In this document: in pieces, positions 23,501-45,655 of the stretch
Layout: each line of letters begins with the position of its first letter
How positions within the stretch are numbered: the stretch's first letter is position 1
Source of the DNA: Clostridia bacterium
Lineage (GTDB): Bacteria; Bacillota; Clostridia; JAAYHZ01
Length of the DNA: 64,000 nt
Reading direction: 5' to 3'
NCBI GenBank assembly: GCA_050950825.1
Contig: JBMNIH010000004.1
Span: forward strand, 320,001-384,000
The notes under the pieces: generated by a model
Told to the model about the DNA's origin: nothing
The model's database searches: none
Seen by the model: the letters and a program-made list of their open reading frames with translations, nothing else
Translations under genes and position numbers: made by a program

Positions 23501-23515
23501 ACGGTATTATCGGTA

Positions 23516-28087: not shown

Positions 28088-28111
28088 AGTGAACGAAAAG
28101 TAAAAATCGAA

Positions 28112-28154: not shown

Positions 28155-28207
28155 ATTTATTGCGATTTTAACATAAAGATTTTGCATCGAGAAAAGGATA
28201 ACAACGT

Positions 28208-29344: not shown

Positions 29345-29436
29345 AAAAGCGTTGAACTCGAAGGTTACGGAAGATATAATGACAGTGTATTCCGGTGAAT
29401 TCGGCAACGAATCCATCATTTGTGAAGGAGTTTAAT

Positions 29437-29922
29437 ATGGTCATTGTTTACGAATCGAAAACCGGCTTTACCAAAAAGTATGCCGAAATGTTAGGAAAAA
29501 AGACGAATTTGAAGGTTTATCACGTCAGCGAGGTCTCTCGGATCGACCAAGCGGAAGAAATTCTTTTTCTCGGGTGGGTCAAGGTAGGGAAAATACAGGG
29601 GCTTAATAAAGTGAGAAAACGGAATCTCGTCGCCGTCTGCGGGTCCGGTACCGGAGAAACCGCCGAGCCTAACCCGGAAACGATGATTGCACGGAACCGG
29701 ATCAACGGGTTGCCCTTTTTTTATCTTCGGGGAGGATGTCTTCCGTTAAAAGAAATCAAAGGATTTGACGGGTTCATGCTGTCCATGTTCGTTAAAATGC
29801 TGAAAAATCGCAAGAAACAAGACGGAAAAACCAAAGAATCCATTGAAATCATAGAGAACGGCTTTGACGGTGTCAAAGAGGAAAATCTCGAACCCGTTCT
29901 TCATTGGCTGAAGGAAAGGTAG
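29437..29922 (+). CDS. Flavodoxin-like protein
   Basis: IVYESKTGFTKKYA FMN-loop motif, FFYLRGG; SD AAGGAG. Confidence 0.7.
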   Translation: MVIVYESKTGFTKKYAEMLGKKTNLKVYHVSEVSRIDQAEEILFLGWVKVGKIQGLNKVRKRNLVAVCGSGTGETAEPNPETMIARNRINGLPFFYLRGGCLPLKEIKGFDGFMLSMFVKMLKNRKKQDGKTKESIEIIENGFDGVKEENLEPVLHWLKER

Positions 29923-29931
29923 TTCGGGCCG

Positions 29932-30165
29932 TTACATTCCGGCACCGTCAACGATACGACGGGTTTTTGCCGTCTGCTCGATGATTTCTTCTTTTATATC
30001 CTTCCATCCCGGACCGGGCGTTACGAGAGGAATGTCCGCGTTCGTTTTAATGTTGTCTTGTCCGTACTTGTCGGCGATGATCTTCGGGCTGCAAAATCCG
30101 ATAGAGGATAGGGAATTTAAAATAGTCGATAGTATGGAAATATCATAACTTGATTTCTTGAACAT
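29932..30165 (-). other. Short ORF, possibly the 3' remnant of a gene
   Basis: 77 codons; the 3' two-thirds look coding-like, the 5' part is AT-rich with no SD. Confidence 0.25.
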
Positions 30166-30236
30166 AGCAAAAAAGTATTTTTTACTTTATTAAAGCTTTT
30201 CGTAACAAATGCTACCGATTCTTTCTCGTTACTGTA

Positions 30237-30265
30237 TTTACATATTCTACAATTCGGTATATAAT
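30237..30265 (+). promoter_or_regulatory. Sigma-A promoter of the 12-gene catabolic operon
   Basis: TTTACA (30237-30242), 17 bp spacer, TATAAT (30260-30265). Confidence 0.7.
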
Positions 30266-30279
30266 TACTTCGGAGTTTA

Positions 30280-30293
30280 CGTTAACGTTAACG
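30280..30293. promoter_or_regulatory. LacI-type operator O1
   Basis: Perfect palindrome CGTTAACGTTAACG with central CG, just downstream of the -10 element. Confidence 0.75.
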
Positions 30294-30343
30294 GAGTAAT
30301 CCGTCTCATTATTCTATTCCGTATACAGTCTCATACGTCGTTT

Positions 30344-30357
30344 CGTTAACGTTAACG
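30344..30357. promoter_or_regulatory. LacI-type operator O2
   Basis: Second identical CGTTAACGTTAACG, 64 bp from O1. Confidence 0.75.
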
Positions 30358-30388
30358 GATAAGCCTACTTGTATGGGAGGTTATCGCT

Positions 30389-31528
30389 ATGATAAAAGTC
30401 GGTATTGCAGGTGCCAGAGGGTTAAGCACCATCAAAGGCTTTCAAGCCAATCCGAATGTGGAGGTTACGGCTCTTTGTGATTTGGACGAGGATTTTGCCA
30501 AGAAGAGGGCTGCGGATCTCAATATTCCCAAACACTATCGAGTATTTGAAGATATGTTGGAAAGCGACATTGATGCGGTCGTTATTGCGACTCCCATGCA
30601 GTGTCACGTGCCCCAAGCTTTGGCGGCGCTGGAGGCGGGAAAGCATGTGTTAAGCGAAGTTACCGCCGGGGTAACCATGGATGAGCTTTTTTGGCTGTGT
30701 GAAAAGGTGGAGGAAACCCAAAAAGTCTATATGATGGCGGAAAACTACATCTATATGCAGGAGATTCAGGTTGTAAAAGGCATGGTGGAGGCCGGCGTTT
30801 TCGGCGAAGTATATTTCGGGGAAGGGGAGTACATTCACGACATTAAAAACATGGTTACATACAGCTATGGGCGGTTTACGAGCGGAAAAACGTCCTGGAG
30901 AAAATATTGGCAATTCGGACGGAGAGGCTCCTTTTATCCCACCCACAGTTTAGGCCCCGTTATGAAGTGGCTCCATGGAGATCGGATCAAAACCGTTCGT
31001 ACGGTAGGTACGGGACAGTGGACCGCTCCTCATTTGCGCAACGACGACTTGGCTTTGACCTTGTGTACTACCGAAAAGGGTAAGCTGATTAAAATCCGGG
31101 TGGATTGTGTATCCAATCGACCTCACTGCGCCACCTATTATTCTTGCCAAGGAACGAAAGGATGCTACGAAGCGGCAAGAGGGTTGGGGGACCAAGCCAA
31201 GGTTTGGTTTGAAGGAATCGACGACAAACAAGAAAAGACATGGTACCCGCTGAAGGATTTCTATGATCAATATTTGCCGGAAAGATACAAAAAGGCCTCG
31301 GAGGATCAAAAGAAATCGGGACACGGCGGAGGTGACTTTTTCATCGTGGAGGATTTTGTCAACGCCATCCTCTACGGCAACCCGCCCGGAGTGGACGTGT
31401 ATGAGGCTTGCGAATGGACGGCGGTGGCTTTCTTGTCGGAGCTATCCGTTATGAACGGCGGGCGTGAGATGGAAATGCCGAAATTCCGAAAGAACATGCC
31501 TTGGGAAGAAAAGATTATCAAAATTTAA
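30389..31528 (+). CDS. Gfo/Idh/MocA oxidoreductase, GH109-like
   Basis: Rossmann N-terminus, SEV, MAENY.Y, GEGEYIHD, YPTHSLGP, SGHGGGDF. Confidence 0.8.
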   Translation: MIKVGIAGARGLSTIKGFQANPNVEVTALCDLDEDFAKKRAADLNIPKHYRVFEDMLESDIDAVVIATPMQCHVPQALAALEAGKHVLSEVTAGVTMDELFWLCEKVEETQKVYMMAENYIYMQEIQVVKGMVEAGVFGEVYFGEGEYIHDIKNMVTYSYGRFTSGKTSWRKYWQFGRRGSFYPTHSLGPVMKWLHGDRIKTVRTVGTGQWTAPHLRNDDLALTLCTTEKGKLIKIRVDCVSNRPHCATYYSCQGTKGCYEAARGLGDQAKVWFEGIDDKQEKTWYPLKDFYDQYLPERYKKASEDQKKSGHGGGDFFIVEDFVNAILYGNPPGVDVYEACEWTAVAFLSELSVMNGGREMEMPKFRKNMPWEEKIIKI

Positions 31529-31549
31529 TCGGAACCGGAGGAAAAGGAT

Positions 31550-32608
31550 ATGACATTCCAATTGAACGCGACGGATGAACGGTTTTACAATACTTACATA
31601 AAGGATTTTATACCGGATAAAATCATCGATGTGCATACCCATGTTTGGCTTACGGAGTTTAAGCGTAAGAAGGAAATTCAACCGCGCCGCACCGTCACTT
31701 GGCCTTCCATGGTCGCCAAAGATAATTCCATCGAAGATCATATGAATTCCTATCGCATCATGTTTCCCGAAAAAAAGGTGATTCCCGTTATTTTCTCCAA
31801 TCTTTCGCCGGGAGACGATTTGGATGCCGGCAACGGATACATCCGTAGCTGTGCGGAGCAATATAAATTGCCGAGCCTGATGTACGCAACCCCCGAAATG
31901 AAAGGGGAGGTATTGGAAAGAGCGGTAAACGAGGGCGGTTTTCTCGGTATCAAGGTCTATCTGGATTTTTCATCTCCTCAAATACCGAAAAATGAAATTT
32001 GCATCTATGACTTTTTAACCCGCGATCATTTGGAAGCGGCGGACAAAAACGGTTGGATCGTGATGCTTCACATACCCCGCAACGATCGGTTAAAGGATCC
32101 TTTGAACATTGCGCAGATGACGGAAATCGATCGAACCTACAAGAACGCAAAAGTCATTATCGCTCATGTAGGCCGTGCCTATTGCTTTGAAGATGTGGGG
32201 GACGCCTTTGAGCATTTGAGAAAAACCGAAAGGCTCTATTTCGACATCAGCGCAAACTGCAACGAACAGGTTTTCACGGAGCTTTTAAAAAACATCGATC
32301 GCAAGCGTATTCTTTTCGGAAGCGATTTGCCCATTCTTAAAATGCGAACCAAACGAATTTGCGAAAACGGTATGTATATTAACTTGATACCGAAGGGACT
32401 GTACGGAGATGTCTCCGGGGATCCCCACATGCGGGAGTGCACGGGAGAGATTGCGGAGCAGATGACCCTTTTCATGTACGAAGAAATCGACGCTTTCCGA
32501 AAAGCCACGCTCAATACGGGGCTCAAAGAAGGTGCCGTTGAAGACATTTTTTACAACAACGCATGCCGTATGCTTCGGGAAGCCGGATTTACGGAAGATT
32601 TGGATTAG
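31550..32608 (+). CDS. Amidohydrolase family protein
   Basis: IIDVHTH, GIK, MLH, IIAHVG, LFGSD, IFYNNA. Confidence 0.8.
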   Translation: MTFQLNATDERFYNTYIKDFIPDKIIDVHTHVWLTEFKRKKEIQPRRTVTWPSMVAKDNSIEDHMNSYRIMFPEKKVIPVIFSNLSPGDDLDAGNGYIRSCAEQYKLPSLMYATPEMKGEVLERAVNEGGFLGIKVYLDFSSPQIPKNEICIYDFLTRDHLEAADKNGWIVMLHIPRNDRLKDPLNIAQMTEIDRTYKNAKVIIAHVGRAYCFEDVGDAFEHLRKTERLYFDISANCNEQVFTELLKNIDRKRILFGSDLPILKMRTKRICENGMYINLIPKGLYGDVSGDPHMRECTGEIAEQMTLFMYEEIDAFRKATLNTGLKEGAVEDIFYNNACRMLREAGFTEDLD

Positions 32609-32623
32609 AAAGGAAGGGTTTAT

Positions 32624-34003
32624 ATGATCAAGGTGGGGTTACTGTCCTTTTACTTAAAGCTTTACGATGATACATCACCTACGACAAGGAAGGAATTTGA
32701 CGGTTTTATGGATGAGATCAAAAAGCTTTTGGAGGACAAAGGCTTGCACATTGTTGCAAGTCCCGTGTGTCGAATTGAAAAGGAATTCGAGGAGGCGGCA
32801 AAGCTTTTTGACGCTCAGGATGTGGATGCCGTTGTCACGCTCCATTTGGCTTATTCTCCTTCTTTGGAATCGGCGAACGTATTAAAGTCTTTAAAGGTAC
32901 CCGTCATTGTATTGGATACCACGCCGGACGAAAGCTTTTCCATGGAGCAAACGGCGGACCGGATTATGTTTAATCATGGTATACACGGTGTTCAGGATAT
33001 GTGCAACCTGCTGCTTCGAAACGGTGTTCCCTTCCATATATGCGCAGGACACTACAAAACCTCCGACTGCTTGGACCGGGTTGCAATATTTGCAAAAGCC
33101 GCCCATATGGCGAAGCGTTTTAAGACCTGCAATATAGGGATTATCGGTTCACCTTTTGCCGGCATGGGAGACTTTGGCATCGGCTTTGACGTCATGAAGG
33201 AAAGCTTCGGTTTCCGGATTACTCCATTCCCGGTAAACGAATACCGTCGTTATGCGGACATGATTAATGAAGAAGATATCCGAAGAGAATACGAAAGGAA
33301 TTTGGAGCGGTTTGTCGTCGAAGTGGAACCGGAGTACCATAAGAAAGCCCTTCTTCCCAATTTGGTTGTACGAAAATGGATGGAAGAAAACCGGCTGGAC
33401 GGATTCACCGCCAACTTTTTGGATATTCGACCCGAAAACGGTTTTACATCCATGCCTTTTCTGGAGGCGTCGGAGCAACTGTCCATTGGAAAGGGATATG
33501 CGGGAGAGGGCGACGTTTTAACGGCCGCATTGACGGCATCCTTGATGTCGGTTTTCAAGAACACTTCTTTTATGGAAATGTTTTGTCCCGATTGGCGCAA
33601 TAACGCGATATTTGTAAGCCACATGGGAGAAATGAACCTGAACTTATGCCATGACAAACCGATTCTAAGGAAAAAACCCTTCCCGTATACCGATGCGGAG
33701 GATCCCATCGCCGCATACGGAGGATTTCGAGCCGGAACCTGCATATTGACGGATCTTGCGCCGGCAGGAGGCGGCAAGTACAACTTGATATTATCCAAAG
33801 TACAAATGCTGGAGCCTCAAGTAAGCACGGATCTTAAAAATTCAATACACGGTTGGTTTAAACCGGAAGTACCCCTTCCCGAATTTTTGGAAGAATACAG
33901 CCGCAACGGAGGAACCCACCATTTGGCATGCGTCTATACGGACGAATTGGAAATCTTGAAGGCCTTCGGCAAGATGATGGGCTTTCATGTAGTTGTTATC
34001 TGA
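32624..34003 (+). CDS. L-arabinose/L-fucose isomerase-family protein
   Basis: AraA-like metal ligands GEGD, SFME, SHMGE, GGTHH, plus NHG.HG. Confidence 0.75.
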   Translation: MIKVGLLSFYLKLYDDTSPTTRKEFDGFMDEIKKLLEDKGLHIVASPVCRIEKEFEEAAKLFDAQDVDAVVTLHLAYSPSLESANVLKSLKVPVIVLDTTPDESFSMEQTADRIMFNHGIHGVQDMCNLLLRNGVPFHICAGHYKTSDCLDRVAIFAKAAHMAKRFKTCNIGIIGSPFAGMGDFGIGFDVMKESFGFRITPFPVNEYRRYADMINEEDIRREYERNLERFVVEVEPEYHKKALLPNLVVRKWMEENRLDGFTANFLDIRPENGFTSMPFLEASEQLSIGKGYAGEGDVLTAALTASLMSVFKNTSFMEMFCPDWRNNAIFVSHMGEMNLNLCHDKPILRKKPFPYTDAEDPIAAYGGFRAGTCILTDLAPAGGGKYNLILSKVQMLEPQVSTDLKNSIHGWFKPEVPLPEFLEEYSRNGGTHHLACVYTDELEILKAFGKMMGFHVVVI

Positions 34004-34025
34004 TTTGTTGGAAAGGATAAAGGTT

Positions 34026-34559
34026 ATGGGAAACAACGAACGATTTTCACCCCAGCTGGTTATGCGTTTGGAAGGCTTTGATTCATTGCCTTCCTTGGAG
34101 CTTCCGGAAGGATACACGGTTCGAGCCGCAAGGCCGGGAGAAGAGTCCTTTTGGGTGGACATCATTAACGATTCCTTCGGCTATTCGGAGAATCGGTCCT
34201 TTAACGATTTGAAAAAAGAGCCTTGTTTTTCTTACGACCGGGTGTTTTATGTCTGTTATAATGACATCCCCGTAGGAACGGCGTCTTCATGGCACAGGAA
34301 GGAATGGGGAGAGGATGTTGCCTATCTTCATATGGTGGGCGTAAAGAAAGAATTTCAAGGAAAAAAACTGGGCTACTATGTAAGCCTGAAGGCCTTGCTG
34401 GATATGAAGGAAAGAGGGTATAAGGCTTGTGTGCTGCAAACGGACGACTTTCGTGAGGCGGCAATCAAAACATATTTGCGCCTAGGCTTCGATCCGTATA
34501 TTACTCATGAAAATCATCCCGAAAGATGGGTCCGTATTCGGAAAAATTTAAACATTTAA
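34026..34559 (+). CDS. GNAT family N-acetyltransferase
   Basis: VGV..EFQGKKLG acetyl-CoA motif A, AIKTY.RLGF. Confidence 0.8.
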   Translation: MGNNERFSPQLVMRLEGFDSLPSLELPEGYTVRAARPGEESFWVDIINDSFGYSENRSFNDLKKEPCFSYDRVFYVCYNDIPVGTASSWHRKEWGEDVAYLHMVGVKKEFQGKKLGYYVSLKALLDMKERGYKACVLQTDDFREAAIKTYLRLGFDPYITHENHPERWVRIRKNLNI

Positions 34560-34586
34560 AATTCGGAAAAAAGCGAGGGAATCATC

Positions 34587-35831
34587 ATGATCAAAGTAGG
34601 AGTTGTGGGTGTCCGAAGAGGGAGTTCTTTCATCAATAGCGCCAAAGAAACAGGCATGGAGCTGGTGGCCATATGCGATATTTGGGAAGAAAAGCTCCAT
34701 GAAGCCGGTAAAAGGTACAATGTGGCAACCTATACCGATTACGACAAGTTTTTGGAGCATGATATGGATGCCGTCATTCTGGCCAATTATTTTCACCAAC
34801 ATGCTCCCTTTGCCATCAAAGCGTTGGATGCGGGATTTCACGTCATGAGTGAAACAACGGCGGTCATTACCATGGCGGAAGGTGTCGCTCTCATCAACAA
34901 GGTAGAAGAAACGAAAAAGATCTATATGTTGGCGGAAAATTACCCGTACTTTCGGTACAACCAAGAAATGCGTAGGCTTTATCGAGAAGGTGAAATCGGA
35001 GAAATGGTGTACGGAGAAGGAGAATACGTTCACCCCATGTCCGTAGAAGACAAAAACAAAATTTCTCCGGGGTTCCGGCATTGGAGAAACAACCTTCCGG
35101 CAACCTATTACAACACCCATGCATTGGCACCGATTATGTACATAACCGACACGATTCCCGTAAAGGTCAATGCTCTGTGCATTCCGTATTTGGATTCCGA
35201 TGAGCAAACTCCGTTGCTGCCCCAAAAGGGGGATACGAGCTCCGTCATATTGACCCGTATGAACAACGAATCCGTGGTTCGGACCATCGGAGTCAATTTA
35301 AGAGGGCACGGCAACTGGTATAGAATTCACGGAACCCGAGGCTTGATGGAAAACTTACGGACCTTTGACCAACAAATGCTGCGGGTAAAACACGACGCTT
35401 TTGAAATGAGGGAAGGAGAGGTCGAAGAAAGAATCTACAAGCCTGAGTTTCCGATTCTTGCGGATGCAGCCAAAAGGACCGGACACGGTGGAGGCGATTT
35501 TTATACCGACTACTTTTTTGCCGAAGCCATACGGACCGGAAAAACGCCGTATTTTGACGTGTACCGCGCCGTTGCCATGTCCGCCGTTGCCATCCAAGGC
35601 TACAAGTCGGCTTATGCACACGGTGCGCCTTACGAAATCCCCGACTTTAAGAACAGTCTTTCGGCAAGAGAAGAATACAAAAACGACAATTGGTGTCCCA
35701 TGCCGGAATTTAAGGATGTTCAGCCGAACCAGCCTTACCCCAGTGTGTACGGCGACAAGTCCATAACCGAGGAGGCCAAAGCATTGGCAAAAAAGTATTG
35801 GAAAGAAATCGGATACGAAGAGAAAGAATAG
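34587..35831 (+). CDS. Gfo/Idh/MocA oxidoreductase, GH109-like (tandem copy 1)
   Basis: MSET, LAENYPY, GEGEY.H, YYNTHAL.P, TGHGGGDF. Confidence 0.8.
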   Translation: MIKVGVVGVRRGSSFINSAKETGMELVAICDIWEEKLHEAGKRYNVATYTDYDKFLEHDMDAVILANYFHQHAPFAIKALDAGFHVMSETTAVITMAEGVALINKVEETKKIYMLAENYPYFRYNQEMRRLYREGEIGEMVYGEGEYVHPMSVEDKNKISPGFRHWRNNLPATYYNTHALAPIMYITDTIPVKVNALCIPYLDSDEQTPLLPQKGDTSSVILTRMNNESVVRTIGVNLRGHGNWYRIHGTRGLMENLRTFDQQMLRVKHDAFEMREGEVEERIYKPEFPILADAAKRTGHGGGDFYTDYFFAEAIRTGKTPYFDVYRAVAMSAVAIQGYKSAYAHGAPYEIPDFKNSLSAREEYKNDNWCPMPEFKDVQPNQPYPSVYGDKSITEEAKALAKKYWKEIGYEEKE

Positions 35832-35858
35832 AGAACGGAGAAAAGGGGGAAGGTCGCT

Positions 35859-37106
35859 ATGATTAAAGTAGGAGTGGTAGGCGTCGGAAGAGGGCGTACG
35901 TTTATCAACAGCGCCAAGGATACGGGTATGGAGCTAGTCGCATTATGCGATATTTGGGAAGAAAAGCTTAATGAGATCGGAAAGCAGTACAACGTGGCAA
36001 CCTACACCGATTTCGACAAGTTTTTGGAACACGACATGGATGCCGTTATTCTCGCCAACTATTTTCACCGGCATGCACCCTTTGCCATCAAAGCATTGGA
36101 TGCGGGATTGCACGTTATGAGTGAAACGACGGCGGTGATAACCATGGCGGAAGGCGTCGCTCTTATCAACAAGGTGGAGGAAACGGGTAAGGTCTATATG
36201 TTGGCGGAAAACTACCCGTACTTTCGATACAACCAAGAGATGCGAAGGCTTTATCAAGAGGGCGAAATCGGGGAAATGGTGTACGGAGAAGGGGAGTACA
36301 TCCATCCGGATTCGGTGGAGGCAAGAAACAAGCGAGCCCCCGGATTTAACCACTGGAGAAACCTTTTGCCTGCCACCTACTACAATACCCATGCATTGGC
36401 GCCGATTATGTATATAACCGACACGATTCCGGTAACGGTGAATGCCCTTTGCATTCCGTTCTTTGATTCCGACGAGCAATCCTCGCTGCTTCCTAAAAAA
36501 AGCGACATGAGCTCCGTCATATTGACCCGTATGAACAACGAATCCGTGGTCCGAACCATCGGAGTCAATTTAAGAGGGCACGGCAACTGGTACCGCATTC
36601 ACGGAACCCGGGGCTTGATGGAGAATTTGAGGACCTTTGACCAACAAATGCTGCGAGTGAAGCATGACGCTTTTGAGCTTCGGGAAGGGGAAACGGAAGA
36701 AAAAATCTACAAACCGGAGTTTCCGGTTCTTGCGAACATAGCGAAAACCACCGGCCACGGAGGAGGCGACTTTTTTACCGATTACCATTTTGCCGAAGCC
36801 ATACGGACCGGCAAAACGCCGTATTTTGACGTATATCGTGCCGTTGCCATGTCCGCCGTCGCCATCCAAGGCTACAAGTCGGCTCACGAACACGGTGCGC
36901 CTTACGAGATTCCTGACTTTAAGAACAGCCTATCGGCAAGAGAAAAATACAAGAACGACAATTGGTGTCCCATGCCGGAGTTTAGGGACCTTCAGCCGAA
37001 CCAACCCTACCCCAGTGTTTACGGCGACAGACCCATAACTGAAGAAGCAAAGGCATTGGCGAGGAAGCATTGGCAAGAGATCGGATACAAAGGAGAGGAT
37101 TTGTGA
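35859..37106 (+). CDS. Gfo/Idh/MocA oxidoreductase, GH109-like (tandem copy 2)
   Basis: Same motifs; roughly 85-90% identical to 34587-35831 by manual comparison. Confidence 0.8.
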   Translation: MIKVGVVGVGRGRTFINSAKDTGMELVALCDIWEEKLNEIGKQYNVATYTDFDKFLEHDMDAVILANYFHRHAPFAIKALDAGLHVMSETTAVITMAEGVALINKVEETGKVYMLAENYPYFRYNQEMRRLYQEGEIGEMVYGEGEYIHPDSVEARNKRAPGFNHWRNLLPATYYNTHALAPIMYITDTIPVTVNALCIPFFDSDEQSSLLPKKSDMSSVILTRMNNESVVRTIGVNLRGHGNWYRIHGTRGLMENLRTFDQQMLRVKHDAFELREGETEEKIYKPEFPVLANIAKTTGHGGGDFFTDYHFAEAIRTGKTPYFDVYRAVAMSAVAIQGYKSAHEHGAPYEIPDFKNSLSAREKYKNDNWCPMPEFRDLQPNQPYPSVYGDRPITEEAKALARKHWQEIGYKGEDL

Positions 37107-38578
37107 CGAATCGATATTACATTGGCATTGACTGCGGTACCAGCGGTACGAAAACCGTATTGATTTGCGACTCGGGAGAGATCGTATCGAAAGCCTATTG
37201 CGGATACCCGTTAATAAAGCCGGGGAAATACATGGTGGAGCAGGACGCGAACCGGTGGTGGGAAGCCGTTGTACAAACGGTGTTAAGCTGCTGCCAAGGA
37301 ATCGATAAGAAAAAGGTCAAGGCGATGGCGGTATCCGCCCAAGCGGGATGCGCGGTCCCCGTTAAGAACGGAGCTCCGTTGGATAATGCGCTTTCTTGGT
37401 TGGATGCCAGAGCCCACGAGGTCACGCAGCGGTATTTCGGGTTATTAGGAAACGATACGGTATACGGGAAAACCGGATGGCCCGTATCCGCCGGTATGAC
37501 CTTTCCGAAAATCATTTGGTACAAGGAAAACAAGCCCTCGATTTTCGAAGCGGCGGATAAGTTCTTGTCAACGGTGGATTACATCAATTTCAAGCTTACC
37601 GGCGAATACGTTATCGATCCGAGCAATGCCGCTTTAACCCAGTGCTACAATTTGGTCGACAACGATTGGGATCAAGACATTTTGGGATTGATTGACTTTG
37701 ATAAAGAAAAGCTGCCTGAGATTCTGGATTCCGGTAAATTAATCGGAAAGCTGACTTCCCAAGCGGCAAAAGAATTGAACCTTTCGGAAGATACCTTGGT
37801 CTATTCCGGAGGTCACGATCAATACTGCGTTGCCGCCGGTGCCGGTGTTTTTACCCCGGGAGAAATGCTGATCGCCACCGGAACCGCGTGGGTAAATCTA
37901 GCGGCTTCCGACAGGCCTGTTTTCGATACGGAAAACCATTTGACGCCCGGAAGGCACGTAAGAGAAAATACATGGGGGCTTTTGACATCCGTTCCCGCAG
38001 CCGGAGCCTCCATGGAATGGTTTAACGACAACTTCGGACAACGAGCATCGGAGGAAAAGGAAGATTCGAAGGAAAGCTTCGGGAAGATCGACTCCGTATG
38101 CAGCGAAAGAATGACGCAAGATTCCGGTGTGATGTTTTACCCCGGACAAACGCGTGTAAGCGGAAAAAGAGGGGCTTTTATAGGATTGGGGCTGGAACAC
38201 GATCGCTACGATTTGTTTTTGGCCATCATGGAAGCCGCCGCTTTTGAAGTACGGATCAAGGTTCAAGCCTTTGAAAAAGTAATCGGGGGCATTCGTTACC
38301 CCATAATGACAGGAGGTGCAGCAAAAAGCAATTTGTGGAGAACCATTTGTGCATCGGTGTTGGATAGGGAGATTTATGCCGTACGCGAACCGGATATGGC
38401 CGCCATCGGGGCGGCGCTTGTTGCGGCATTCGGATACGGCGAATTTGAGGACCTGACAAAAAGCGTCAAAAGGATAAAAATAGAGAGAATCCATGTATCA
38501 CCGGATCCGAATTATGTAAAAAGGTATCGCGAAAAATACGGCAAGTACCTGGAATTTCGAAGGTTTTGTTTGGAGTAG
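37103..38578 (+). CDS. FGGY-family carbohydrate kinase (xylulokinase-like)
   Basis: IGIDCGTSGTK, EQD...WW, W.D.R, GGHDQ, GTA, TGGAAKS.LW; GTG start overlaps the upstream TGA. Confidence 0.85.
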   Translation: MTNRYYIGIDCGTSGTKTVLICDSGEIVSKAYCGYPLIKPGKYMVEQDANRWWEAVVQTVLSCCQGIDKKKVKAMAVSAQAGCAVPVKNGAPLDNALSWLDARAHEVTQRYFGLLGNDTVYGKTGWPVSAGMTFPKIIWYKENKPSIFEAADKFLSTVDYINFKLTGEYVIDPSNAALTQCYNLVDNDWDQDILGLIDFDKEKLPEILDSGKLIGKLTSQAAKELNLSEDTLVYSGGHDQYCVAAGAGVFTPGEMLIATGTAWVNLAASDRPVFDTENHLTPGRHVRENTWGLLTSVPAAGASMEWFNDNFGQRASEEKEDSKESFGKIDSVCSERMTQDSGVMFYPGQTRVSGKRGAFIGLGLEHDRYDLFLAIMEAAAFEVRIKVQAFEKVIGGIRYPIMTGGAAKSNLWRTICASVLDREIYAVREPDMAAIGAALVAAFGYGEFEDLTKSVKRIKIERIHVSPDPNYVKRYREKYGKYLEFRRFCLE

Positions 38579-38681
38579 AAATATTTTATCGGGTTAAAAG
38601 TTTCATACTTCGTTAGTACTACAGCAGTTAGCCCGGTATCGTTGCGGTAAAAAAAGAAAAAACACGATAGAGGTGAATAAG

Positions 38682-40424
38682 ATGAAAAAGCTGTTGTGTA
38701 TGTTATTGGTTGTGTTGATTCTTTTTTCTCTGGCTGCATGCGCAAAAAAAGAATCAAACGGGGTTTCAAACGATGTGACCACCGCCCAAGAGGAGGATCC
38801 GTTCAAGGAGTTTTATGAAATCTCTTGGTTGGTGCAGTACACGAAGGATTACGAAGAAGGACGTTGGGACGAGTTGGAGCTTGAACAAAAGTTCAACATC
38901 GATTTGAAGGTATGGAACGTGGATTATGACAATGCGGAAGAGCTGACCCTCATGGTATCCGCAGGAGACGTTCCGGATATGGGTTTCTATCCGAAGGACC
39001 CCATTGAACTGTACGAGCAGGGTTTAACAAGAACCATCAACATGGACTTGATCAAAAAGTATCTTCCGGGATATTACAAGATCATTGAGGAATATCCGAT
39101 CGGCCTTATGTTTAACAAGGTACCGGATACGGAAAACGAATACTACGGAATTACCATGGCCTCCGCGTTGAGCAAGTTCTACTATTTCAACCACGCACTG
39201 CGTTTGGATTGGCTGGAGAATCTCGGATACACCATTGACGATTTGACGGTCTTCGACGTTCCGGATAACTTTAACGAGTACGGCAATTTCGACAATAACA
39301 TCTTCTTCTCCAACCGTACCTTCTCCTACGAGGAATTTTTGGACATTAATAAAAGGTTTACGGAAGACGACCCGGACGGTAACGGCGTGGACGATACCTA
39401 CTTTGGAATCAGCCTCGGCTTCCATACATGGAACCGTCTGACATTGGCGACCTTCGGGTTATCCATTGACGGGAATCATTTGTATAAGGACACCTTGACG
39501 GGAGACGTGGTACCCTATTACGCTTACGAAGGCTTCCGAGATTTTCTCGTATGGGAAACCGACGCATTGGAAAAAGGGTACATAAGAAAGCTGCCGGGAG
39601 TGGACAATTGGCAAAACGAAGTCTTTGCGGTATGGGCTAGCGGAAAGCACGGTTACTACGAATTGTCCGCACAAGACGTATTTGCCGAATACAAACCGGA
39701 ATACTCCATGTCCTTGGCTCCCGCATCGGTTTTAAAGGAAGACAACGACGCGAAATTCATCATATTCCCGGGCTTTATCGGTCCTTTGGGAATCGGAGGG
39801 AACACCCGGTACTCACCTACGCCTTACAGGGCCGGCGCTTGGGGTACTTGGAAAATCGCCAAAGAAGTTTCCGACGAAAAGTTGGCGAGAATATTGCAGA
39901 TGATGGAGTACACCCACTTTGATAAAGATGCATATATGCGGTATTTTTACGGTATCGAAGGCATCCATTACAAGTGGTTGGGAGAACCCGGGAAAAGCTC
40001 CATCTTAACAATCCCGAATGAACAGGTTCCCGAACAATACCGCTCGAAAGCCCCGATGAATATTTTCGCTTCCAACAAGTTCTTGATGGATATGTCCATT
40101 TGGACGCTGTTCAGCTCCTACTACTACACGTGGCATTTCTACCAAGAAGAAAACGGTTGGAGTAAATACGACATCGAGCCGTACAAATATTTGGATCGGA
40201 TGTACTTTACGGATGAGCTGTGGCAGCAATACGAAAAAGTAAGCCAAGAAGTTTCCGAAGGTATAAATGCCGTTCGTAACGATTTTTGGAACCGGGCTCA
40301 TGAAGGACAGATTGCAAACATTAACCAAGAGTGGTCCGTTTACATCGATAATCTGCACAAGAACGGACTGGACAAATTGGTTGAAATATTCAACAGCAAG
40401 GATATGGCGGAATTTTTGAAATAA
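38682..40424 (+). CDS. Extracellular carbohydrate solute-binding lipoprotein (LplA-like)
   Basis: Lipobox LAAC, AGD.PD, R.DWLE.LG, F...DPDGNG.DDT, YG.EG.HY. Confidence 0.75.
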   Translation: MKKLLCMLLVVLILFSLAACAKKESNGVSNDVTTAQEEDPFKEFYEISWLVQYTKDYEEGRWDELELEQKFNIDLKVWNVDYDNAEELTLMVSAGDVPDMGFYPKDPIELYEQGLTRTINMDLIKKYLPGYYKIIEEYPIGLMFNKVPDTENEYYGITMASALSKFYYFNHALRLDWLENLGYTIDDLTVFDVPDNFNEYGNFDNNIFFSNRTFSYEEFLDINKRFTEDDPDGNGVDDTYFGISLGFHTWNRLTLATFGLSIDGNHLYKDTLTGDVVPYYAYEGFRDFLVWETDALEKGYIRKLPGVDNWQNEVFAVWASGKHGYYELSAQDVFAEYKPEYSMSLAPASVLKEDNDAKFIIFPGFIGPLGIGGNTRYSPTPYRAGAWGTWKIAKEVSDEKLARILQMMEYTHFDKDAYMRYFYGIEGIHYKWLGEPGKSSILTIPNEQVPEQYRSKAPMNIFASNKFLMDMSIWTLFSSYYYTWHFYQEENGWSKYDIEPYKYLDRMYFTDELWQQYEKVSQEVSEGINAVRNDFWNRAHEGQIANINQEWSVYIDNLHKNGLDKLVEIFNSKDMAEFLK

Positions 40425-40466
40425 TACGGGTTTGATGCCATATAGGAAGGATACAAGTACGGTGAA

Positions 40467-40496
40467 TGACGGGCATGATAACCCACATGCCCGTCA
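40467..40496 (+). other. Stable intergenic stem-loop without U-tract after the SBP gene
   Basis: TGACGGGCATG-8nt-CATGCCCGTCA. Confidence 0.65.
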
Positions 40497-40524
40497 ACCG
40501 TTCATAATGGAAGGGATGGATAAC

Positions 40525-42066
40525 ATGTTAAAACCGGTTAAAAGGTCTTTAAGACAACTGTTAGGCGATGAATTTTCGGACCGATTAAAAGAGGGGGCGT
40601 TGTTTTTCGGTGAATTGACCGACCGAGAAACGGAATGTCTCTTGGAGGAAGAAGTGGATTTTTTACCGGATTCTTTTGTACGAAAAAATACGGAGCTTTT
40701 GGATCGCGTCGGTTCCAAAGTGATTTCGGAAATGAACAGCACGGAAGCCGGTGCCGCTACCGACTCCTTTCAAAAAGCGACGGACACGAAGGCTTCTCCG
40801 GTCGGAGGACTCGGCGTATTTCGATTGGGAGAGGACGGTAGACTCTATTTAATCTCAAAAAGCGAGCATTACCACGCTCCCTTAGGCCACGGCTTTCCGG
40901 GATACAAGCTGCTGGATAGGGCAAGTGCGCTGGGAATCGGGAACGCAACCCACAACAATACCCGAGGATATATTACACGACTGTCGGAAAGAGAACTGAT
41001 TCGGCATGCAAACGGTATAAAGAAAAGCGATGAGAAGACATTGGAGCGAGTTCTTACGAGCCGAGAGGAAAAGGTCTTAAACCGAGTCATTAACCTTCAA
41101 ACCGGAAGCTTAGCGGCGGAAGCGGGCATTAAAATGATGTTGGCAAGGTTCTATTCCTTGGATAAAACCTTTCCGCTGCCGAAATACGAAGACCGAATAC
41201 CGGTTTTTTTGGTTATGGGCGACTACGAGGGCGGAGGTACCGCCAACTACCACGGTACCACGATTTTTGCCCAAACCTTGCGCGACATGTGGCCCGGCCT
41301 GTACAATAAAATGGAAAAGGCCGGCATTATGAAAGTGTGTACCGTAAACATTAACGATATTGATGATTTAAAAAGAAAAATAGAGCGTTACAATCGTCCT
41401 CCGTATAAGACGGCAGGATTTTTACACGAAATCATACTGATGAACTACGGAGCCATACGATTGGAAAAAGATTTTTTGCGGCAAGCTTACTCTCTTTGCA
41501 AAGAATACGACACGCCGGTGATGGTGGATGAAATACAATCCTGCATGTGGTACAAGGGAATGTTTTTATTCCGTCTGTATGAGCTGGACCCGGACTTTGT
41601 CATCGTCGGAAAAGGTTTTCCGGGAGGACGGTTCGCAGGGTCCAAAATCATTACCACTGCCCCCATGGATTCTTTGAATCAATTCGGTGCATTGGTTACA
41701 AACGGCCAAGAAGAATTGACATCATTAGCGTATTTGATTACCATGGTCTTTGCCGAGGAAAACGAAGAACATATGGAAATGATCGGGGAGTATTATGAAA
41801 AAAGGCTTAATGAATTGGCAATAAAATACACGGAGCATATCAGAAGCATTGAAGGCTTAGGACTTTTACAAGGCATAACCTTTGACGATATTGAAAAAAC
41901 CGTTCGGTTCACCAAGTATCTTCAAAAAAGGTGCATCGACATTAGCGCACAAACATACAAAGCGTCATGTCCACCTACGGCTTTGACCAAGCTTCCCGTT
42001 ATATCCGTGAAAGAAACGGTGGATTACCTCATCGCCCGTATGGAGGAAAGCCTAAAAGCATTATAA
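40525..42066 (+). CDS. Class III PLP-dependent aminotransferase with long N-terminal extension
   Basis: LGH, TGS.A.EA..K, YHG.T, VDEIQS, PD.VI.GKG (PLP lysine), G.GLL.GI. Confidence 0.8.
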   Translation: MLKPVKRSLRQLLGDEFSDRLKEGALFFGELTDRETECLLEEEVDFLPDSFVRKNTELLDRVGSKVISEMNSTEAGAATDSFQKATDTKASPVGGLGVFRLGEDGRLYLISKSEHYHAPLGHGFPGYKLLDRASALGIGNATHNNTRGYITRLSERELIRHANGIKKSDEKTLERVLTSREEKVLNRVINLQTGSLAAEAGIKMMLARFYSLDKTFPLPKYEDRIPVFLVMGDYEGGGTANYHGTTIFAQTLRDMWPGLYNKMEKAGIMKVCTVNINDIDDLKRKIERYNRPPYKTAGFLHEIILMNYGAIRLEKDFLRQAYSLCKEYDTPVMVDEIQSCMWYKGMFLFRLYELDPDFVIVGKGFPGGRFAGSKIITTAPMDSLNQFGALVTNGQEELTSLAYLITMVFAEENEEHMEMIGEYYEKRLNELAIKYTEHIRSIEGLGLLQGITFDDIEKTVRFTKYLQKRCIDISAQTYKASCPPTALTKLPVISVKETVDYLIARMEESLKAL

Positions 42067-42092
42067 AGACAAGAAAGAAGGGAGGATTGGTT

Positions 42093-43295
42093 ATGGGTAT
42101 AAAGGTCGGTGTGGTAGGCTGCGGAAGCTTTTCTAAAAGCTTTATCCGCTTGTTTCAAGCCCATCCCTATGTGGAGAAAGTCGTTTTGTGCGACTTGGAT
42201 GAGAGCAAACTAAAGGAACGGGGAGCGGAGACCGGGATTACGGATTTTTCTCCTTCTTTGGATCGGTTGTTGGAAACCGATGTGGACGCCGTCGCCCTTT
42301 TTACGCAAAATTGGCTTCACGGTCCTCAAGCAAAAAAGGCGCTGATGAAGGGAAAACACGTGTATTCCGCCGTGCCGATGGGTATCACCTTTGAAGAAAT
42401 AAAAGATATCGTGGAAGCGGTCGAGAAGACCGGTAATATCTACATGATGGGCGAGACCAGCTATTATTACCCGGACGTTATCTATTGTCGAAACCGATTT
42501 CTAGAGGGAGCTTTCGGCGATACGGTCTATACCGAATGTGAATACTACCATGATTGGGATCACGGGTCGTATGATGTCATGAAACGAAGAGGCGGTGCGA
42601 ACTGGAAGCAGACGGCGGGAAGCCCGCCCATGCATTATTGCACCCATTCGGTAAGCTGCTTCGTTTCGGTAACAAATGCATATTTAACCAAAGTATCCTG
42701 TTTCGGTTTTGTGGATAAGAACAGGGACGGTTATGATCTGTACGGAGAAGGCAAGAACCTATGGAACAATTCTTTCAGTAACGAATCGGCGCTGTTTTAT
42801 GCATCGGACGGATCCATCGTCCGGGTGAACGAGTTCCGAAGGATCGGATATCCCGGTGCCGTAAGAGTGAGTATGTACGGAACCGAAGGATCCTTTGAAA
42901 ACCGTAGCTCCGAAGGATCGAAAAAAGGCTGTGTTTGGCTTACGAAAAATCGGGAAGAAACGGTATGCTTGGATGATTTGTTGGAATGTGCGCCCCGATA
43001 TTTGACGGATGATCCGGCGGTCATTCGAGATGAAAAGCCTGTGAATTTCGCGAAAATTCAGCCGACGGATCAATTGCCGGATTCACTTAAAAAGATCAAT
43101 TCGGGTCACTTTATGTCGCATAATTTTCTCATTCATGAATTTGTTCACGCTTGTTACTACAAGACCATGCCGAAAAATAACGCATGGATGGCGGCTCGAT
43201 ACACCATCCCCGGAATTATTGCCCACGAATCGGCAGTGAAATTCGGCCAAATGCTTACGATACCGGATTTGGGTTGTCCGAAAGAATACAGATGA
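42093..43295 (+). CDS. Gfo/Idh/MocA oxidoreductase
   Basis: VGVVGCG, YSAVP, MMGETSYY, EYYHD, PP.HY.THS; SD GGAGG. Confidence 0.8.
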   Translation: MGIKVGVVGCGSFSKSFIRLFQAHPYVEKVVLCDLDESKLKERGAETGITDFSPSLDRLLETDVDAVALFTQNWLHGPQAKKALMKGKHVYSAVPMGITFEEIKDIVEAVEKTGNIYMMGETSYYYPDVIYCRNRFLEGAFGDTVYTECEYYHDWDHGSYDVMKRRGGANWKQTAGSPPMHYCTHSVSCFVSVTNAYLTKVSCFGFVDKNRDGYDLYGEGKNLWNNSFSNESALFYASDGSIVRVNEFRRIGYPGAVRVSMYGTEGSFENRSSEGSKKGCVWLTKNREETVCLDDLLECAPRYLTDDPAVIRDEKPVNFAKIQPTDQLPDSLKKINSGHFMSHNFLIHEFVHACYYKTMPKNNAWMAARYTIPGIIAHESAVKFGQMLTIPDLGCPKEYR

Positions 43296-43314
43296 AGGGG
43301 AATGAAGAAAGGAT

Positions 43315-44406
43315 ATGGAAAGCAAAAAGATTACCTTGAGCGATATTGCAAAGATAGCCGGCGTCACTATCGGTACCGTAGACAGAGCTATGCATAATCG
43401 TCCGGGTATCAGCGAAGAAACGAGAAAAAGAATATTGGAAATTGCAAAAAAATACAATTACAGGCCGGATTTAATCGGAAGAAGCTTGTCCATGAAGGGG
43501 AAGAAGATAAAAATCGGTGTGCTTTTAAGAAGTAATCCGTCTTTTTTCTGGGATCACGTTGCAGGCGGTATTCGCGCCGCAGCAAAAGAGGTGGAGGTAT
43601 TCGGCGTCGAACCGATCATAGAGTTTTATCAAATTCCGAAGGATTTTACCGATGATGATTATGTAAATGCATGCAGAGATAAGCTAAGAAAATTCGCGGA
43701 GGATAAGAATAACGCATGCATTGTTGTACCGCTCCATCTTCGCAGCTGTTTGGAGGATATCAATTATTTGACGGAAAAAGAGATCCCCACGGTAACGTTA
43801 AACGACGATATAGAGGACAGCAAAAGAATATTTCATATCGGCCCGGATAACTACCAATCCGGACGTCTGGCCGCCCAATTGGCCGGAGATTTTCTGGCAG
43901 GGAAAGGAAGGGTGTTGTTGTACACGGCCGGGTATTCCTCCTACGGCTACTACTATAGAAAAGTCGGGTTTATGGATAAAATGAGGGAGTCTTTTCCGTC
44001 AATCCAAGTGGTAGAAAGGAATAACAAAACCATTGAAGAAGCGTTTTTCGGAGAAGACATCGATATTCGCTCCTTTGATCTTGTTTGCAACGTTGATGGA
44101 GATACCGTATCGAAGGGTGTAGATCTTTTGGTGCAAAGCAATGATATCCGAAGAATGAAGTATATCGGGTTCGAAATCAATGACCAAGCCAAAGAATATT
44201 TGTCGAAGGGCTTGATTCAGGGTATCATCAGCCAAGACGGTTTTTCTCAAGGATATTTTGCCATGCGAATGCTATGCGAATCTTTAATCTTTGGTAAAAA
44301 GCCGAAATATGATACTATGTATGTAAGAATCGATATCATTTTAAAAGAAAATATGATTATCAATGACCGGATTGTGAACCCGTACTTCATGGGGATTAGT
44401 GTATAA
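43315..44406 (+). CDS. LacI-family transcriptional regulator
   Basis: TLSDIAKIAGVTIGTVDRA..NR..IS.ETR HTH, hinge Y.P....RSL, sugar-binding domain with GPDNY.SG. Confidence 0.9.
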   Translation: MESKKITLSDIAKIAGVTIGTVDRAMHNRPGISEETRKRILEIAKKYNYRPDLIGRSLSMKGKKIKIGVLLRSNPSFFWDHVAGGIRAAAKEVEVFGVEPIIEFYQIPKDFTDDDYVNACRDKLRKFAEDKNNACIVVPLHLRSCLEDINYLTEKEIPTVTLNDDIEDSKRIFHIGPDNYQSGRLAAQLAGDFLAGKGRVLLYTAGYSSYGYYYRKVGFMDKMRESFPSIQVVERNNKTIEEAFFGEDIDIRSFDLVCNVDGDTVSKGVDLLVQSNDIRRMKYIGFEINDQAKEYLSKGLIQGIISQDGFSQGYFAMRMLCESLIFGKKPKYDTMYVRIDIILKENMIINDRIVNPYFMGISV

Positions 44407-44423
44407 AAAGGAAGGATTCGAAT

Positions 44424-45563
44424 ATGGAAGTTTTTAATGTAGGAATTTTGGGTTTTGGTTTTATGGGGAAAATGCATGCATACGGGTACAAGACCATACC
44501 CTTATACTACGGAGGGCTGCCTTGGAAAACAAAGCTGTGCGGTGTGTGCACATCATCGCCTGCGACGGCGCAGATTGCCAAAGAAGCCATGGATTTTGAG
44601 TTCGCCACGGTGAACCCCGACGATATTATAAACAGAGAAGATATTCATATCATTAACGTGTGCACCCCGAATATTTATCATAAAGATGTCATCATAAAAG
44701 CGTTGAAGGCGGGAAAGCACATTTACTGCGACAAGCCTTTGGCAATCAACTATGAAGAAGCGCAGGAAATCGTGAAGGTGATGAAGGAGAACAAGGACAA
44801 AGGATCCGTTTGCCAAGTCGTCTTTCAAAATCGATTTTTCCCTGCCACATTAAAAGCAAAGGAATTGATCGAAGAGGGGCGATTGGGAAACGTTTTGACT
44901 TTCCGGGCTTCCTACCTTCATTCCGGATCCGTCGACCCTATAAAGCCTATCGGATGGAAGCAGGATAAGGACATCGGCGGCGGAGGCGTGCTGCTGGATT
45001 TGGGTTCTCATATTCTTGACCTGATCTACTACTTGTTAGGTGAGTATCGGTCGGTGTTTGCCAAAACGCAAGTTTTGTATCCGAAAAGACCGGATAAAAA
45101 AGGCGTATGGATTGATATCTCGGCGGAGGATGCCGTATATATGGTGGTGAAAATGAAAAACAACGGCATCGGTACCATAGAAGCTTCGAAGATTGCGACG
45201 GGAACCGACGACGAGCTGCGTTTTGAGATACACGGAGACAAGGGTGCTCTACGGTTCAATTTGATGAACCCGAATTATCTTGAGTTTTACGATAACACCG
45301 CACCGGAAGGCCCTTACGGAGGTATGAGGGGATTTACGAGGATCGAGTGCGTTCAGCGATTTCCGAAGCCGGGAGGAGCATTCCCAAGTCCGAAGGCGTC
45401 CATCGGCTGGATGAGAGCGCATGTTCACTGTCTTTACAGCTTTTTGGACAGTGTGTATAACAAGAAGCAAGCTTATCCTTCCTTTGAAGACGGAGCCTAT
45501 ATTCAATACGTCATGGAAAAAGCGTACGAATCCGACGAGAAACAGTGTTGGACGGAGATATGA
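44424..45563 (+). CDS. Gfo/Idh/MocA oxidoreductase
   Basis: GILGFGFMG, CDKP, GGG.L.DLGSH.LD. Confidence 0.88.
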   Translation: MEVFNVGILGFGFMGKMHAYGYKTIPLYYGGLPWKTKLCGVCTSSPATAQIAKEAMDFEFATVNPDDIINREDIHIINVCTPNIYHKDVIIKALKAGKHIYCDKPLAINYEEAQEIVKVMKENKDKGSVCQVVFQNRFFPATLKAKELIEEGRLGNVLTFRASYLHSGSVDPIKPIGWKQDKDIGGGGVLLDLGSHILDLIYYLLGEYRSVFAKTQVLYPKRPDKKGVWIDISAEDAVYMVVKMKNNGIGTIEASKIATGTDDELRFEIHGDKGALRFNLMNPNYLEFYDNTAPEGPYGGMRGFTRIECVQRFPKPGGAFPSPKASIGWMRAHVHCLYSFLDSVYNKKQAYPSFEDGAYIQYVMEKAYESDEKQCWTEI

Positions 45564-45574
45564 AAATATAAAGC

Positions 45575-45611
45575 AAAAAGAGGCTTACAAAGTACCGTTT
45601 GTAAGCCTTTT
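45575..45611. terminator. Bidirectional intrinsic terminator between convergent units
   Basis: AAAAAG-AGGCTTACAAA...TTTGTAAGCCT-TTT. Confidence 0.7.
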
Positions 45612-45655
45612 GTGAAGGAGAGTATAGTGAAAAAATTATTATAATGAAAAGGAAG

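Follow-up and report, generated by a model that had tools for sequence, protein, structure and literature searches.

The stretch of DNA analysed here (hereafter the window; G000:C4:320001-384000) covers 64,000 nucleotides of contig JBMNIH010000004.1 of a Clostridia bacterium. The source genome (G000, 3.55 Mb, 97% complete) belongs to a spore-forming member of the class (a SpoIID gene is present) whose habitat is an anaerobic digester. Twelve open reading frames (ORFs) occupy positions 30389 to 45563, all on the forward strand and at the coordinates given by a first-pass annotation made without database searches (Table 1). This annotation had described twelve co-oriented, tightly spaced genes running from one promoter/operator to one terminator, an arrangement borne out by the ORFs, a promoter match, palindromes and a hairpin. 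In our judgement the chances are about even that the genes form a LacI-repressed operon that serves to take up and degrade an amine-bearing sugar or small glycoside. Neighbouring genes are separated by 15-27 bp or overlap, except for gaps of about 100 bp ahead of g08 and ahead of g09. The Pfam families agree with the gene list of the first-pass annotation for all proteins except g08, a supposed substrate-binding protein (SBP) that has no Pfam match but whose homologs are partly named as such. The most likely start of g09 is 40525 (513 amino acids), because eight orthologs of 512-542 amino acids align from this position; for g10, ortholog lengths and alignments most likely place it at 42093 (400 amino acids). 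The tandem paralogs g05 and g06 are 87.8% identical over 411 amino acids.

Table 1. Genes and control elements of the operon (positions in the window; aa, amino acids).
Feature	Position	Strand	Description	Basis
Promoter match	30237-30265	+	sigma-70-type, TTTACA-17 nt-TATAAT, 11/12 positions	
Operator candidate 1	30280-30293		perfect 14-bp palindrome CGTTAACGTTAACG	
Operator candidate 2	30344-30357		same perfect palindrome CGTTAACGTTAACG	
g01	30389-31528	+	Gfo/Idh/MocA protein with GH109 C-terminal domain, 379 aa; GH109-like nicotinamide adenine dinucleotide (NAD) enzyme	Pfam, PDB
g02	31550-32608	+	Amidohydro_2-fold metal enzyme, 352 aa	Pfam
g03	32624-34003	+	AraA-superfamily aldose-ketose isomerase, 459 aa, three AraA domains	Pfam
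g04	33993-34559	+	GNAT N-acetyltransferase, 188 aa, start uncertain	Pfam
g05	34587-35831	+	GH109-related Gfo enzyme, 414 aa	Pfam, PDB
g06	35859-37106	+	Gfo protein, tandem duplicate of g05	Pfam, identity
g07	37070-38578	+	FGGY sugar kinase; start may be a few codons further downstream	Pfam, NCBIfam
g08	38682-40424 (alternative start 38673)	+	lipoprotein, putative diverged LplA/'aldouronate'-type ATP-binding cassette (ABC) substrate-binding protein	signal, homologs
g09	40525-42066	+	class-III (fold type I) pyridoxal phosphate (PLP) aminotransferase, 513 aa	Pfam, orthologs
g10	42093-43295	+	Gfo/Idh/MocA oxidoreductase, 400 aa, C-terminal half divergent	Pfam
g11	43315-44406	+	LacI-family repressor	Pfam
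g12	44424-45563	+	Gfo oxidoreductase, nearest levoglucosan and scyllo-inositol/L-glucose dehydrogenases	PDB
Hairpin terminator	45581-45608		after the g12 stop; common to a convergent AMP-binding/acyl-CoA-synthetase-like gene	

The promoter match is the best on the forward strand between 29800 and 46000, and both copies of the palindrome lie downstream of it, in the operon leader. Allowing up to two mismatches, the window contains five matches to CGTTAACGTTAACG against 0.19 expected, a number that none of 100 shuffles reached; allowing up to one, the two leader copies are the only ones in the 3.55-Mb genome. A perfect copy is also found upstream of g01 in a sister genus (G002; L019:916), and copies with one mismatch precede the aminotransferase gene of G002 and a g05-like gene of another relative, G001. 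Such a footprint gives good support to CGTTAACGTTAACG as the candidate operator of the LacI-family repressor g11, a protein that reaches no NCBIfam equivalog cut-off.

The first-pass annotation did not recognise the gene set as any known sugar pathway, and this stands for the equivalogs of the ara, xyl, iol, levoglucosan and glycoside-3-dehydrogenase routes, whose NCBIfam cut-offs are reached by none of the twelve proteins (AraA NF002795, 622 bits; XylB TIGR01312, 380.25; IolG TIGR04380, 355; LgdA NF052479, 650; BT_2158 family NF058561, 750; BT_2159 family NF058563, 650). On the basis of these cut-offs, the ara and xyl pathways were set aside, as were iol, levoglucosan and BT_2158/9.

Among the five Gfo proteins, g01 is the clearest case: it scores 82 bits with the Pfam domain Glyco_hydro_109_C (PF21252; cut-off 27) and matches the structures 6t2b (2.8e-34) and 2ixa (8.9e-34) over its full length, with the YPTH and GHGGxD stretches aligned, so that full-length similarity and C-terminal domain together place it with the GH109 enzymes by sequence. 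The match of g05 to a GH109 structure is weaker (1.2e-18) and its Pfam score of 20.6 bits falls below the cut-off, as does that of g06. Since g01 and g05 bear no secretion signal, they would be cytoplasmic NAD-dependent glycosidase-like enzymes. The absence of a classical glycosidase, as first described, was confirmed, with three GH109-like NAD enzymes found instead. The product of g12 resembles levoglucosan dehydrogenase (6a3f, 3.9e-62) and scyllo-inositol/L-glucose dehydrogenase (5ya8, 3e-40); it scores 259.2 bits with the LgdA model, against at most 52 for the other operon proteins. Scores with the BT_2158 and BT_2159 families do not exceed 45 and 50 bits, respectively, and those with IolG range from 47 to 133. 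Weak matches link g10 and g01 to the C-glycoside enzyme DgpA, and g05, g06 and g10 to UDP-N-acetylglucosamine (UDP-GlcNAc) 3-dehydrogenase (55-61 bits; cut-off 450). The g10 ortholog of G002 is 79% identical, g12 orthologs (62-64% identity) directly follow the aminotransferase gene in loci L027, L032 and L035, and g05 homologs (35-39%) adjoin the aminotransferase module in several loci, among them L020, L022, L070 and L073.

The isomerase g03 matches AraA structures down to 1.2e-21, with about 20% identity to Escherichia coli AraA and an AraA score of 101.7 bits. Residues E306, E333, H350 and H450 (E. coli numbering), which we take to be the catalytic and metal residues of AraA, are invariant in AraA and nine sequences of the g03 family. 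The kinase g07 scores 288.6 bits with XylB and 193 bits with the FGGY-type gluconokinase GntK. Elsewhere on the same contig and outside the window (C4:475455-477835), a paralog of this kinase (26% identity to g07) directly precedes a class-II aldolase, itself 45% identical to the aldolase adjoining the aminotransferase in other genomes; it could supply the aldolase step that has no gene in the operon. No class-II aldolase/AraD-type epimerase domain was found by Pfam in the twelve proteins, so that the reported lack of an aldolase and a 4-epimerase is right for the operon, but not beyond it, where related loci carry aldolases.

In the Amidohydro_2 protein g02, H29/H31 (HxH), K135, H174, H206, D259 and several arginines are invariant across nine orthologs. 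Its AlphaFold2 (AF2) model is confident (predicted local distance difference test score, pLDDT, of 90), and Foldseek places it in the Amidohydro_2 fold, with LigI-type lactonases, aromatic-acid decarboxylases and the LigJ hydratase as neighbours, at template-modelling (TM) scores of 0.5-0.56 that are too low to read a specific reaction. Single-sequence searches with g02 and g08 against solved structures gave no matches, a profile of nine g02 sequences gave weak ones at best (2f6k, 3.7e-4), and the ESM Atlas offered automatic names alone ("Predicted CDS Pa_7_10880 family" and "Amidohydrolase"). Given its invariant arginines and fold relatives that use carboxylates, g02 probably acts on an anionic intermediate, and it could serve as an epimerase substitute, lactonase, decarboxylase or deacylase. 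The Amidohydro_2 step appears to be tied to the kinase step, because the two genes are constantly adjacent and are fused in locus L042, where an 804-amino acid ORF (14049-16463, +) joins an FGGY kinase (residues 7-436) to an Amidohydro_2 domain (462-800); this fusion is seen in one of the 68 members of that ORF cluster.

The aminotransferase g09 scores 76 bits with Pfam Aminotran_3 (cut-off 30.5). Nine orthologs, 50-70% identical, share the D335-E-I-Q motif and K363 (GKGFPGG) without exception, with a mean column identity of 70%; we take K363 to be the PLP lysine and D335 the aspartate of the DExQ motif. By their conserved motifs, the enzymes g01, g02, g03 and g09 all look intact. No characterised member of the g09 family was found, and no enzyme of the aminotransferase-isomerase-kinase-Amidohydro_2 module reached a curated functional assignment. 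The GNAT g04 has orthologs in G001 and G002 only, and a 29%-identical GNAT occurs in L042.

In the lipoprotein g08, the signal peptide contains a lipobox; sequence searches against Pfam, NCBIfam and the PDB gave no match. Out of 130 homologs, a few are named ABC substrate-binding proteins and a few carry DUF3502 or SBP_bac_1/8, which makes g08 a candidate diverged LplA-type ABC binding lipoprotein. The genome encodes 40 paralogs of g08 and just 11 matches to the permease family PF00528, and none of the 40 has a permease match within 5 kb (three permease queries). There are only two CUT1-like permease pairs (C4:687.8-689.7k and C4:694-695.9k), adjoining a 998-amino acid SBP_bac_1 protein and a DUF5696 protein, while a third permease pair is preceded by a TOBE-type ATPase, an arrangement like that of Pot-like systems. 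Lipoproteins of the g08 type either share very few translocators or are not transport SBPs. Downstream of the operon, a 321-amino acid ORF (48813-49778, -), 34% identical to g08, with a faint DUF3502 match and about half the family length, may be a truncated SBP paralog.

The distribution of these genes in other genomes separates the operon into parts. With g03 as a query, matches were obtained in 15 of 41 related genomes, seven of which hold clear orthologs (40-71% identity; G001, G002, G006, G012, G014, G016 and G020). The twelve-gene set as such was seen only in the organism's own family: it is partly present in G001, where a short contig conserves g01 through two g05/g06 copies, and G002 has ten of the genes, with the position of g09 in the cluster conserved. 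Distant genomes share two to six genes, and the first-pass view of a single twelve-gene system does not hold as far as a conserved unit is concerned. In the other five genomes with g03 orthologs, the Amidohydro_2 and isomerase pair alone is constant, with the kinase added in G012 and G016. Its other companions in these genomes are TIM-like and UPF0047 genes or, alternatively, genes for M20 deacylase, URO-D-like and DUF4432 proteins. A richer cluster is seen in G012 (L017, 810-17455), where the isomerase, kinase and Amidohydro_2 genes occur with TIM-like, UPF0047 and M20 deacylase genes as well as GH88, GH3, GH29, KduI, KduD-like, PfkB and polysaccharide deacetylase genes, as would be expected if the substrate resembled a glycosaminoglycan.

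A profile of the aminotransferase found it in 10 of 300 genomes of the class, across at least six families, and a query on genome contigs recovered eight loci. In L020 and L022 the gene order is Gfo5-like, Gfo12-like, aminotransferase, isomerase, kinase and Amidohydro_2, part of which is seen on the shorter contigs L021 and L023. In metagenome contigs, at least 596 stretches match the aminotransferase patterns and at least 413 encode a relative, the assemblies including those from gut, fermenter, digester and sediment; 80 of these loci were retained. A census of neighbours was then taken over 88 sources with crude ORF calling (841 ORFs clustered, families named through Pfam and NCBIfam); nine sources were dropped and 79 had a called aminotransferase. 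The resulting counts are floors, many contigs being short. The most frequent neighbours are the kinase/Amidohydro_2 cluster (48/79 loci), Gfo12-like proteins (34/79, plus four true g12 orthologs), the isomerase (32/79), a DeoR regulator (28/79) and Gfo5-like proteins (16/79), followed by a class-II ketose-bisphosphate aldolase (8/79), an alanine dehydrogenase (7/79; NCBIfam 513 bits against a cut-off of 392), an SSF symporter (4/79), a DeoC/LacD-type aldolase (3/79) and GH4 (3/79). Several kinds of ABC transporters also adjoin these loci.

Two nested units appear from these data. The inner one consists of the isomerase and the Amidohydro_2 enzyme, usually with the FGGY kinase, and stands alone in some genomes. 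The outer one consists of the 513-amino acid aminotransferase and one or two Gfo proteins, is found in a patchy subset of genomes and sometimes comes with alanine dehydrogenase, which fits a pyruvate-dependent deamination feeding a keto sugar into the inner unit. To these two units, the present operon adds GH109-like enzymes, the GNAT, the binding lipoprotein and the LacI repressor. The PLP-dependent deamination put forward by the first-pass annotation is supported both by the kept PLP lysine of g09 and by this linkage to alanine dehydrogenase in other genomes.

The operon appears to be expressed in biogas reactors, and RNA-library contigs give support that is not decisive. Part of the region 37000-45600 is contained in 24 digester or sludge RNA-library runs, three of which contain at least half of the sampled words. 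Four libraries from biogas reactors (X1-X3 and X6) were mapped as 90 contigs on positions 28000-47500. Of these contigs, 88 are at least 99% identical to the window, the other two, among the 30 of X1, being 95-99% identical, and together they span about 30.6-45.6 kb. They bridge the junctions g01/g02, g02/g03/g04, g04/g05, g05/g06, g06/g07/g08, g08/g09 and g11/g12; among the 32 pieces listed, none bridges g09/g10 or g10/g11. Contig depth is 0-1.9 over the upstream genes (28000-29950), 3.5-18.5 over g02-g08 (X1-X3) and lower, 0-8, over g09-g12.

A route for an amine-bearing sugar or small glycoside can be drawn from these genes, each step being taken from family membership and gene linkage. It is the most economical reading and keeps to the general scheme of the first-pass annotation, with the coupling of the Amidohydro_2 and kinase steps as an addition; the aminopentoses or aminoglycoside-like compounds that the annotation named as substrates are conjectural, as is the order of the steps. 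The lipoprotein g08 would bind the substrate outside the cell and pass it to a transporter encoded elsewhere. In the cytoplasm, the GH109-like NAD enzymes g01 and g05/g06 would act on the glycoside by cleavage or oxidation, with a keto group formed transiently, and the transaminase g09 would transfer a primary amino group, probably onto pyruvate, to give a keto sugar whose keto group g12 and g10 may reduce or shift. The AraA-like g03 would convert the resulting aldose to a ketose for phosphorylation by g07. Right before or after the kinase, g02 would act on an anionic intermediate bearing a phosphate or a carboxylate, and may replace an epimerase, aldolase or decarboxylase step for which the operon has no gene. 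The GNAT g04 would be a family-specific accessory that possibly masks a second amine. The scheme would employ each enzyme once if the amine sat at C3 or C4, whereas for a C2 amine the isomerase would be superfluous. More tentatively, and with doubt prevailing, we suggest that the module represents a widespread transaminase-dependent pathway of anaerobes for amino sugars that have no known catabolic route, in which g02 would catalyse a novel reaction on a sugar phosphate or sugar acid and thereby replace the usual epimerase or aldolase. Candidate substrates would then be 3- or 4-amino-deoxy, diamino or amino-uronic sugars of microbial cell envelopes.

Several observations weigh against a dedicated amino-sugar operon. 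The contigs of the RNA libraries may contain DNA, and a single transcript is not provable from contigs. AF2 modelled g09 poorly (pLDDT of 67), with low values around the PLP lysine. No ABC permease gene was found in or next to the operon (within 5 kb of g08), and the operon has no deacetylase of known type. The cluster of G002 lacks the second g05/g06 copy and g12 (16 kb read). The fold relatives of g02 act on carboxylates, and a scheme for a neutral amino sugar leaves this enzyme unaccounted for. Finally, the isomerase and Amidohydro_2 pair occurs without the aminotransferase (profile, E <= 1e-50) in G006, G012, G016 and G020; the core sugar route therefore needs no transamination. These four genomes, in which the pair stands with or without the kinase, also speak for a route that starts from a nitrogen-free sugar, sugar acid or glycoside, such as a pentose or uronate derivative. 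The aminotransferase and the GNAT would then be add-ons that open the route to an aminated relative or have some other role, and the substrate would undergo Gfo oxidation, the action of g02 as a lactonase or beta-keto-acid decarboxylase, isomerisation and phosphorylation before entering the pentose-phosphate pathway. The lactonases and decarboxylases nearest to g02 in fold, the position of the Gfo gene g01 directly ahead of g02 and the proximity of g07 to XylB and the FGGY-type gluconokinase all agree with it, and a pentulose 5-phosphate or 6-phosphogluconate product would need no aldolase. We nevertheless regard this route as rather unlikely: the aminotransferase is embedded between g08 and g10 in a position kept in G002, it is a constant neighbour of the same enzymes in metagenome loci, and the linkage to alanine dehydrogenase, GNAT and M20 deacylase genes indicates amine chemistry.

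If an amine is involved, the operon could also be a non-orthologous variant of N-acetylhexosamine catabolism, for instance of N-acetylgalactosamine (GalNAc), with release by the GH109-like enzymes, deacetylation by the Amidohydro_2 enzyme (M20 elsewhere), amine removal, isomerisation and phosphorylation, completed in other genomes by a tagatose/ketose-bisphosphate aldolase under DeoR control. The structure 2ixa matched by g01 is an alpha-N-acetylgalactosaminidase, the window has GH20 and GH3 genes not far from the operon, and L017 places the module beside GH88, KduI, KduD and KdgK-type genes, as would suit disaccharides of glycosaminoglycans. The DeoR regulators and class-II aldolases of the census recall AgaR and KbaY, a DeoR regulator and a class-II aldolase being combined in the GalNAc/galactosamine (aga) pathway. 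On the contrary, an aldose-ketose isomerase acting after a transamination at C2 would be chemically redundant, the operon lacks a SIS-type deaminase and a NagA-type deacetylase, we know of no Amidohydro_2 member acting as a sugar deacetylase, and a GH109-like sequence does not determine the substrate, which leaves this variant with a small probability. Breakdown of an aminocyclitol, aminoglycoside-like or opine-like compound in the style of rhizopine (scyllo-inosamine), with Gfo proteins and transaminase interconverting inosamine, inosose and inositol, would make use of the five Gfo/Idh/MocA genes and of the likeness of g12 to scyllo-inositol dehydrogenase; Eis-type and other GNAT genes are found near the module in several gut loci, and an Opp-type transporter adjoins it in L020. 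However, the AraA-type isomerase, with its active site intact, and the FGGY kinase are enzymes of open-chain sugars, no IolE, IolD, IolB or IolC-type family emerged when the operon was scanned with Pfam, and the IolG scores fall far short of their cut-off of 355 bits, so that we consider such a substrate improbable. Least credible, with only a slight chance of being correct, is the biosynthesis or salvage of an amino sugar by Gfo oxidation, transamination and N-acetylation, as in kanosamine or diacetamido-sugar pathways. A Gfo dehydrogenase, an aminotransferase and an acetyltransferase do follow the logic of NtdC/NtdA and WbpB/WbpE/WbpD, and the weak UDP-GlcNAc 3-dehydrogenase matches of g05, g06 and g10 point the same way. 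Those biosynthetic pathways, however, use DegT-type rather than class-III aminotransferases; the LacI repressor, binding lipoprotein, isomerase and kinase are hallmarks of catabolism, the operon has neither a nucleotidyltransferase nor a glycosyltransferase, and alanine dehydrogenase, DeoR and aldolase genes are the neighbours in other loci.

The region upstream of the operon (10750-25186) is rich in glycan-degrading genes, namely two GH20, one GH3 and one GH43, together with a NagB/6-phosphogluconolactonase-like gene, a xylose-isomerase-like TIM-barrel gene and a further Gfo gene, and suggests a lifestyle on amino-sugar-rich glycans. Closer to the operon lie a URO-D/MtaA-like (methylcobamide methyltransferase-like) gene (27044-28087, +) and then CitMHS transporter and flavodoxin-like genes. 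In the unrelated genome G020, the isomerase gene likewise has a URO-D-like gene as its immediate neighbour (L015:8492-9622, -), which could be a hint that methylated sugars undergo a demethylation step.

Identification of the substrate would name several large protein families, would add a route of carbon and nitrogen turnover to digester and gut models, and would possibly reveal new chemistry of the Amidohydro_2 and GH109-like folds. The operon offers a good entry point, as it is complete and apparently expressed, and has a clear candidate LacI operator and a binding protein for ligand fishing. The full-text literature, as covered here without subscription journals and supplementary files, yielded no published description of this common module, and the aminotransferase family and its constant Amidohydro_2 partner match no curated pathway model.

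Compared with known systems, the operon shares with the ara and xyl pathways (E. coli AraA-AraB-AraD and XylA-XylB) an AraA-type isomerase with the same four residues, a kinase nearest to XylB and a sugar repressor. It differs in its low identity to AraA and its isomerase and kinase scores below the equivalog cut-offs, and in the addition of an aminotransferase, five Gfo genes and a GNAT; unlike araBAD, it has no AraD-type epimerase, and an Amidohydro_2 enzyme is the constant third partner. Similarly, g01 resembles the GH109 alpha-N-acetylgalactosaminidases (2ixa, 6t2b) over its full length (about 1e-34) with YPTH and GHGGxD kept, whereas the operon enzymes lack a secretion signal, their identity is low and g05/g06 match less well. 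The Gfo 3-dehydrogenase routes (LgdA, Bacteroides BT_2158/BT_2159 and DgpA) are approached through g12, nearest to levoglucosan dehydrogenase, but the operon lacks a lyase or hydratase partner of the xylose-isomerase-like TIM-barrel type, and its scores stay below the cut-offs. In the related loci, and not in this operon, the DeoR regulator and class-II ketose-bisphosphate aldolase are reminiscent of the aga pathway, from which the system departs in having no phosphotransferase system, SIS deaminase or NagA-type deacetylase and, here, in having LacI and no aldolase. Pyruvate-dependent catabolic transaminases are known to pair with alanine dehydrogenase, as taurine:pyruvate aminotransferase does with Ald. 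The class-III PLP enzyme adjoins a bona fide alanine dehydrogenase in seven of the 79 related loci, whereas the present operon has none and the members of the aminotransferase family exceed the usual length by about 100 residues. Taken together, the folds and the repressor-controlled architecture of a sugar operon are known, and the combination of genes appears to be new.

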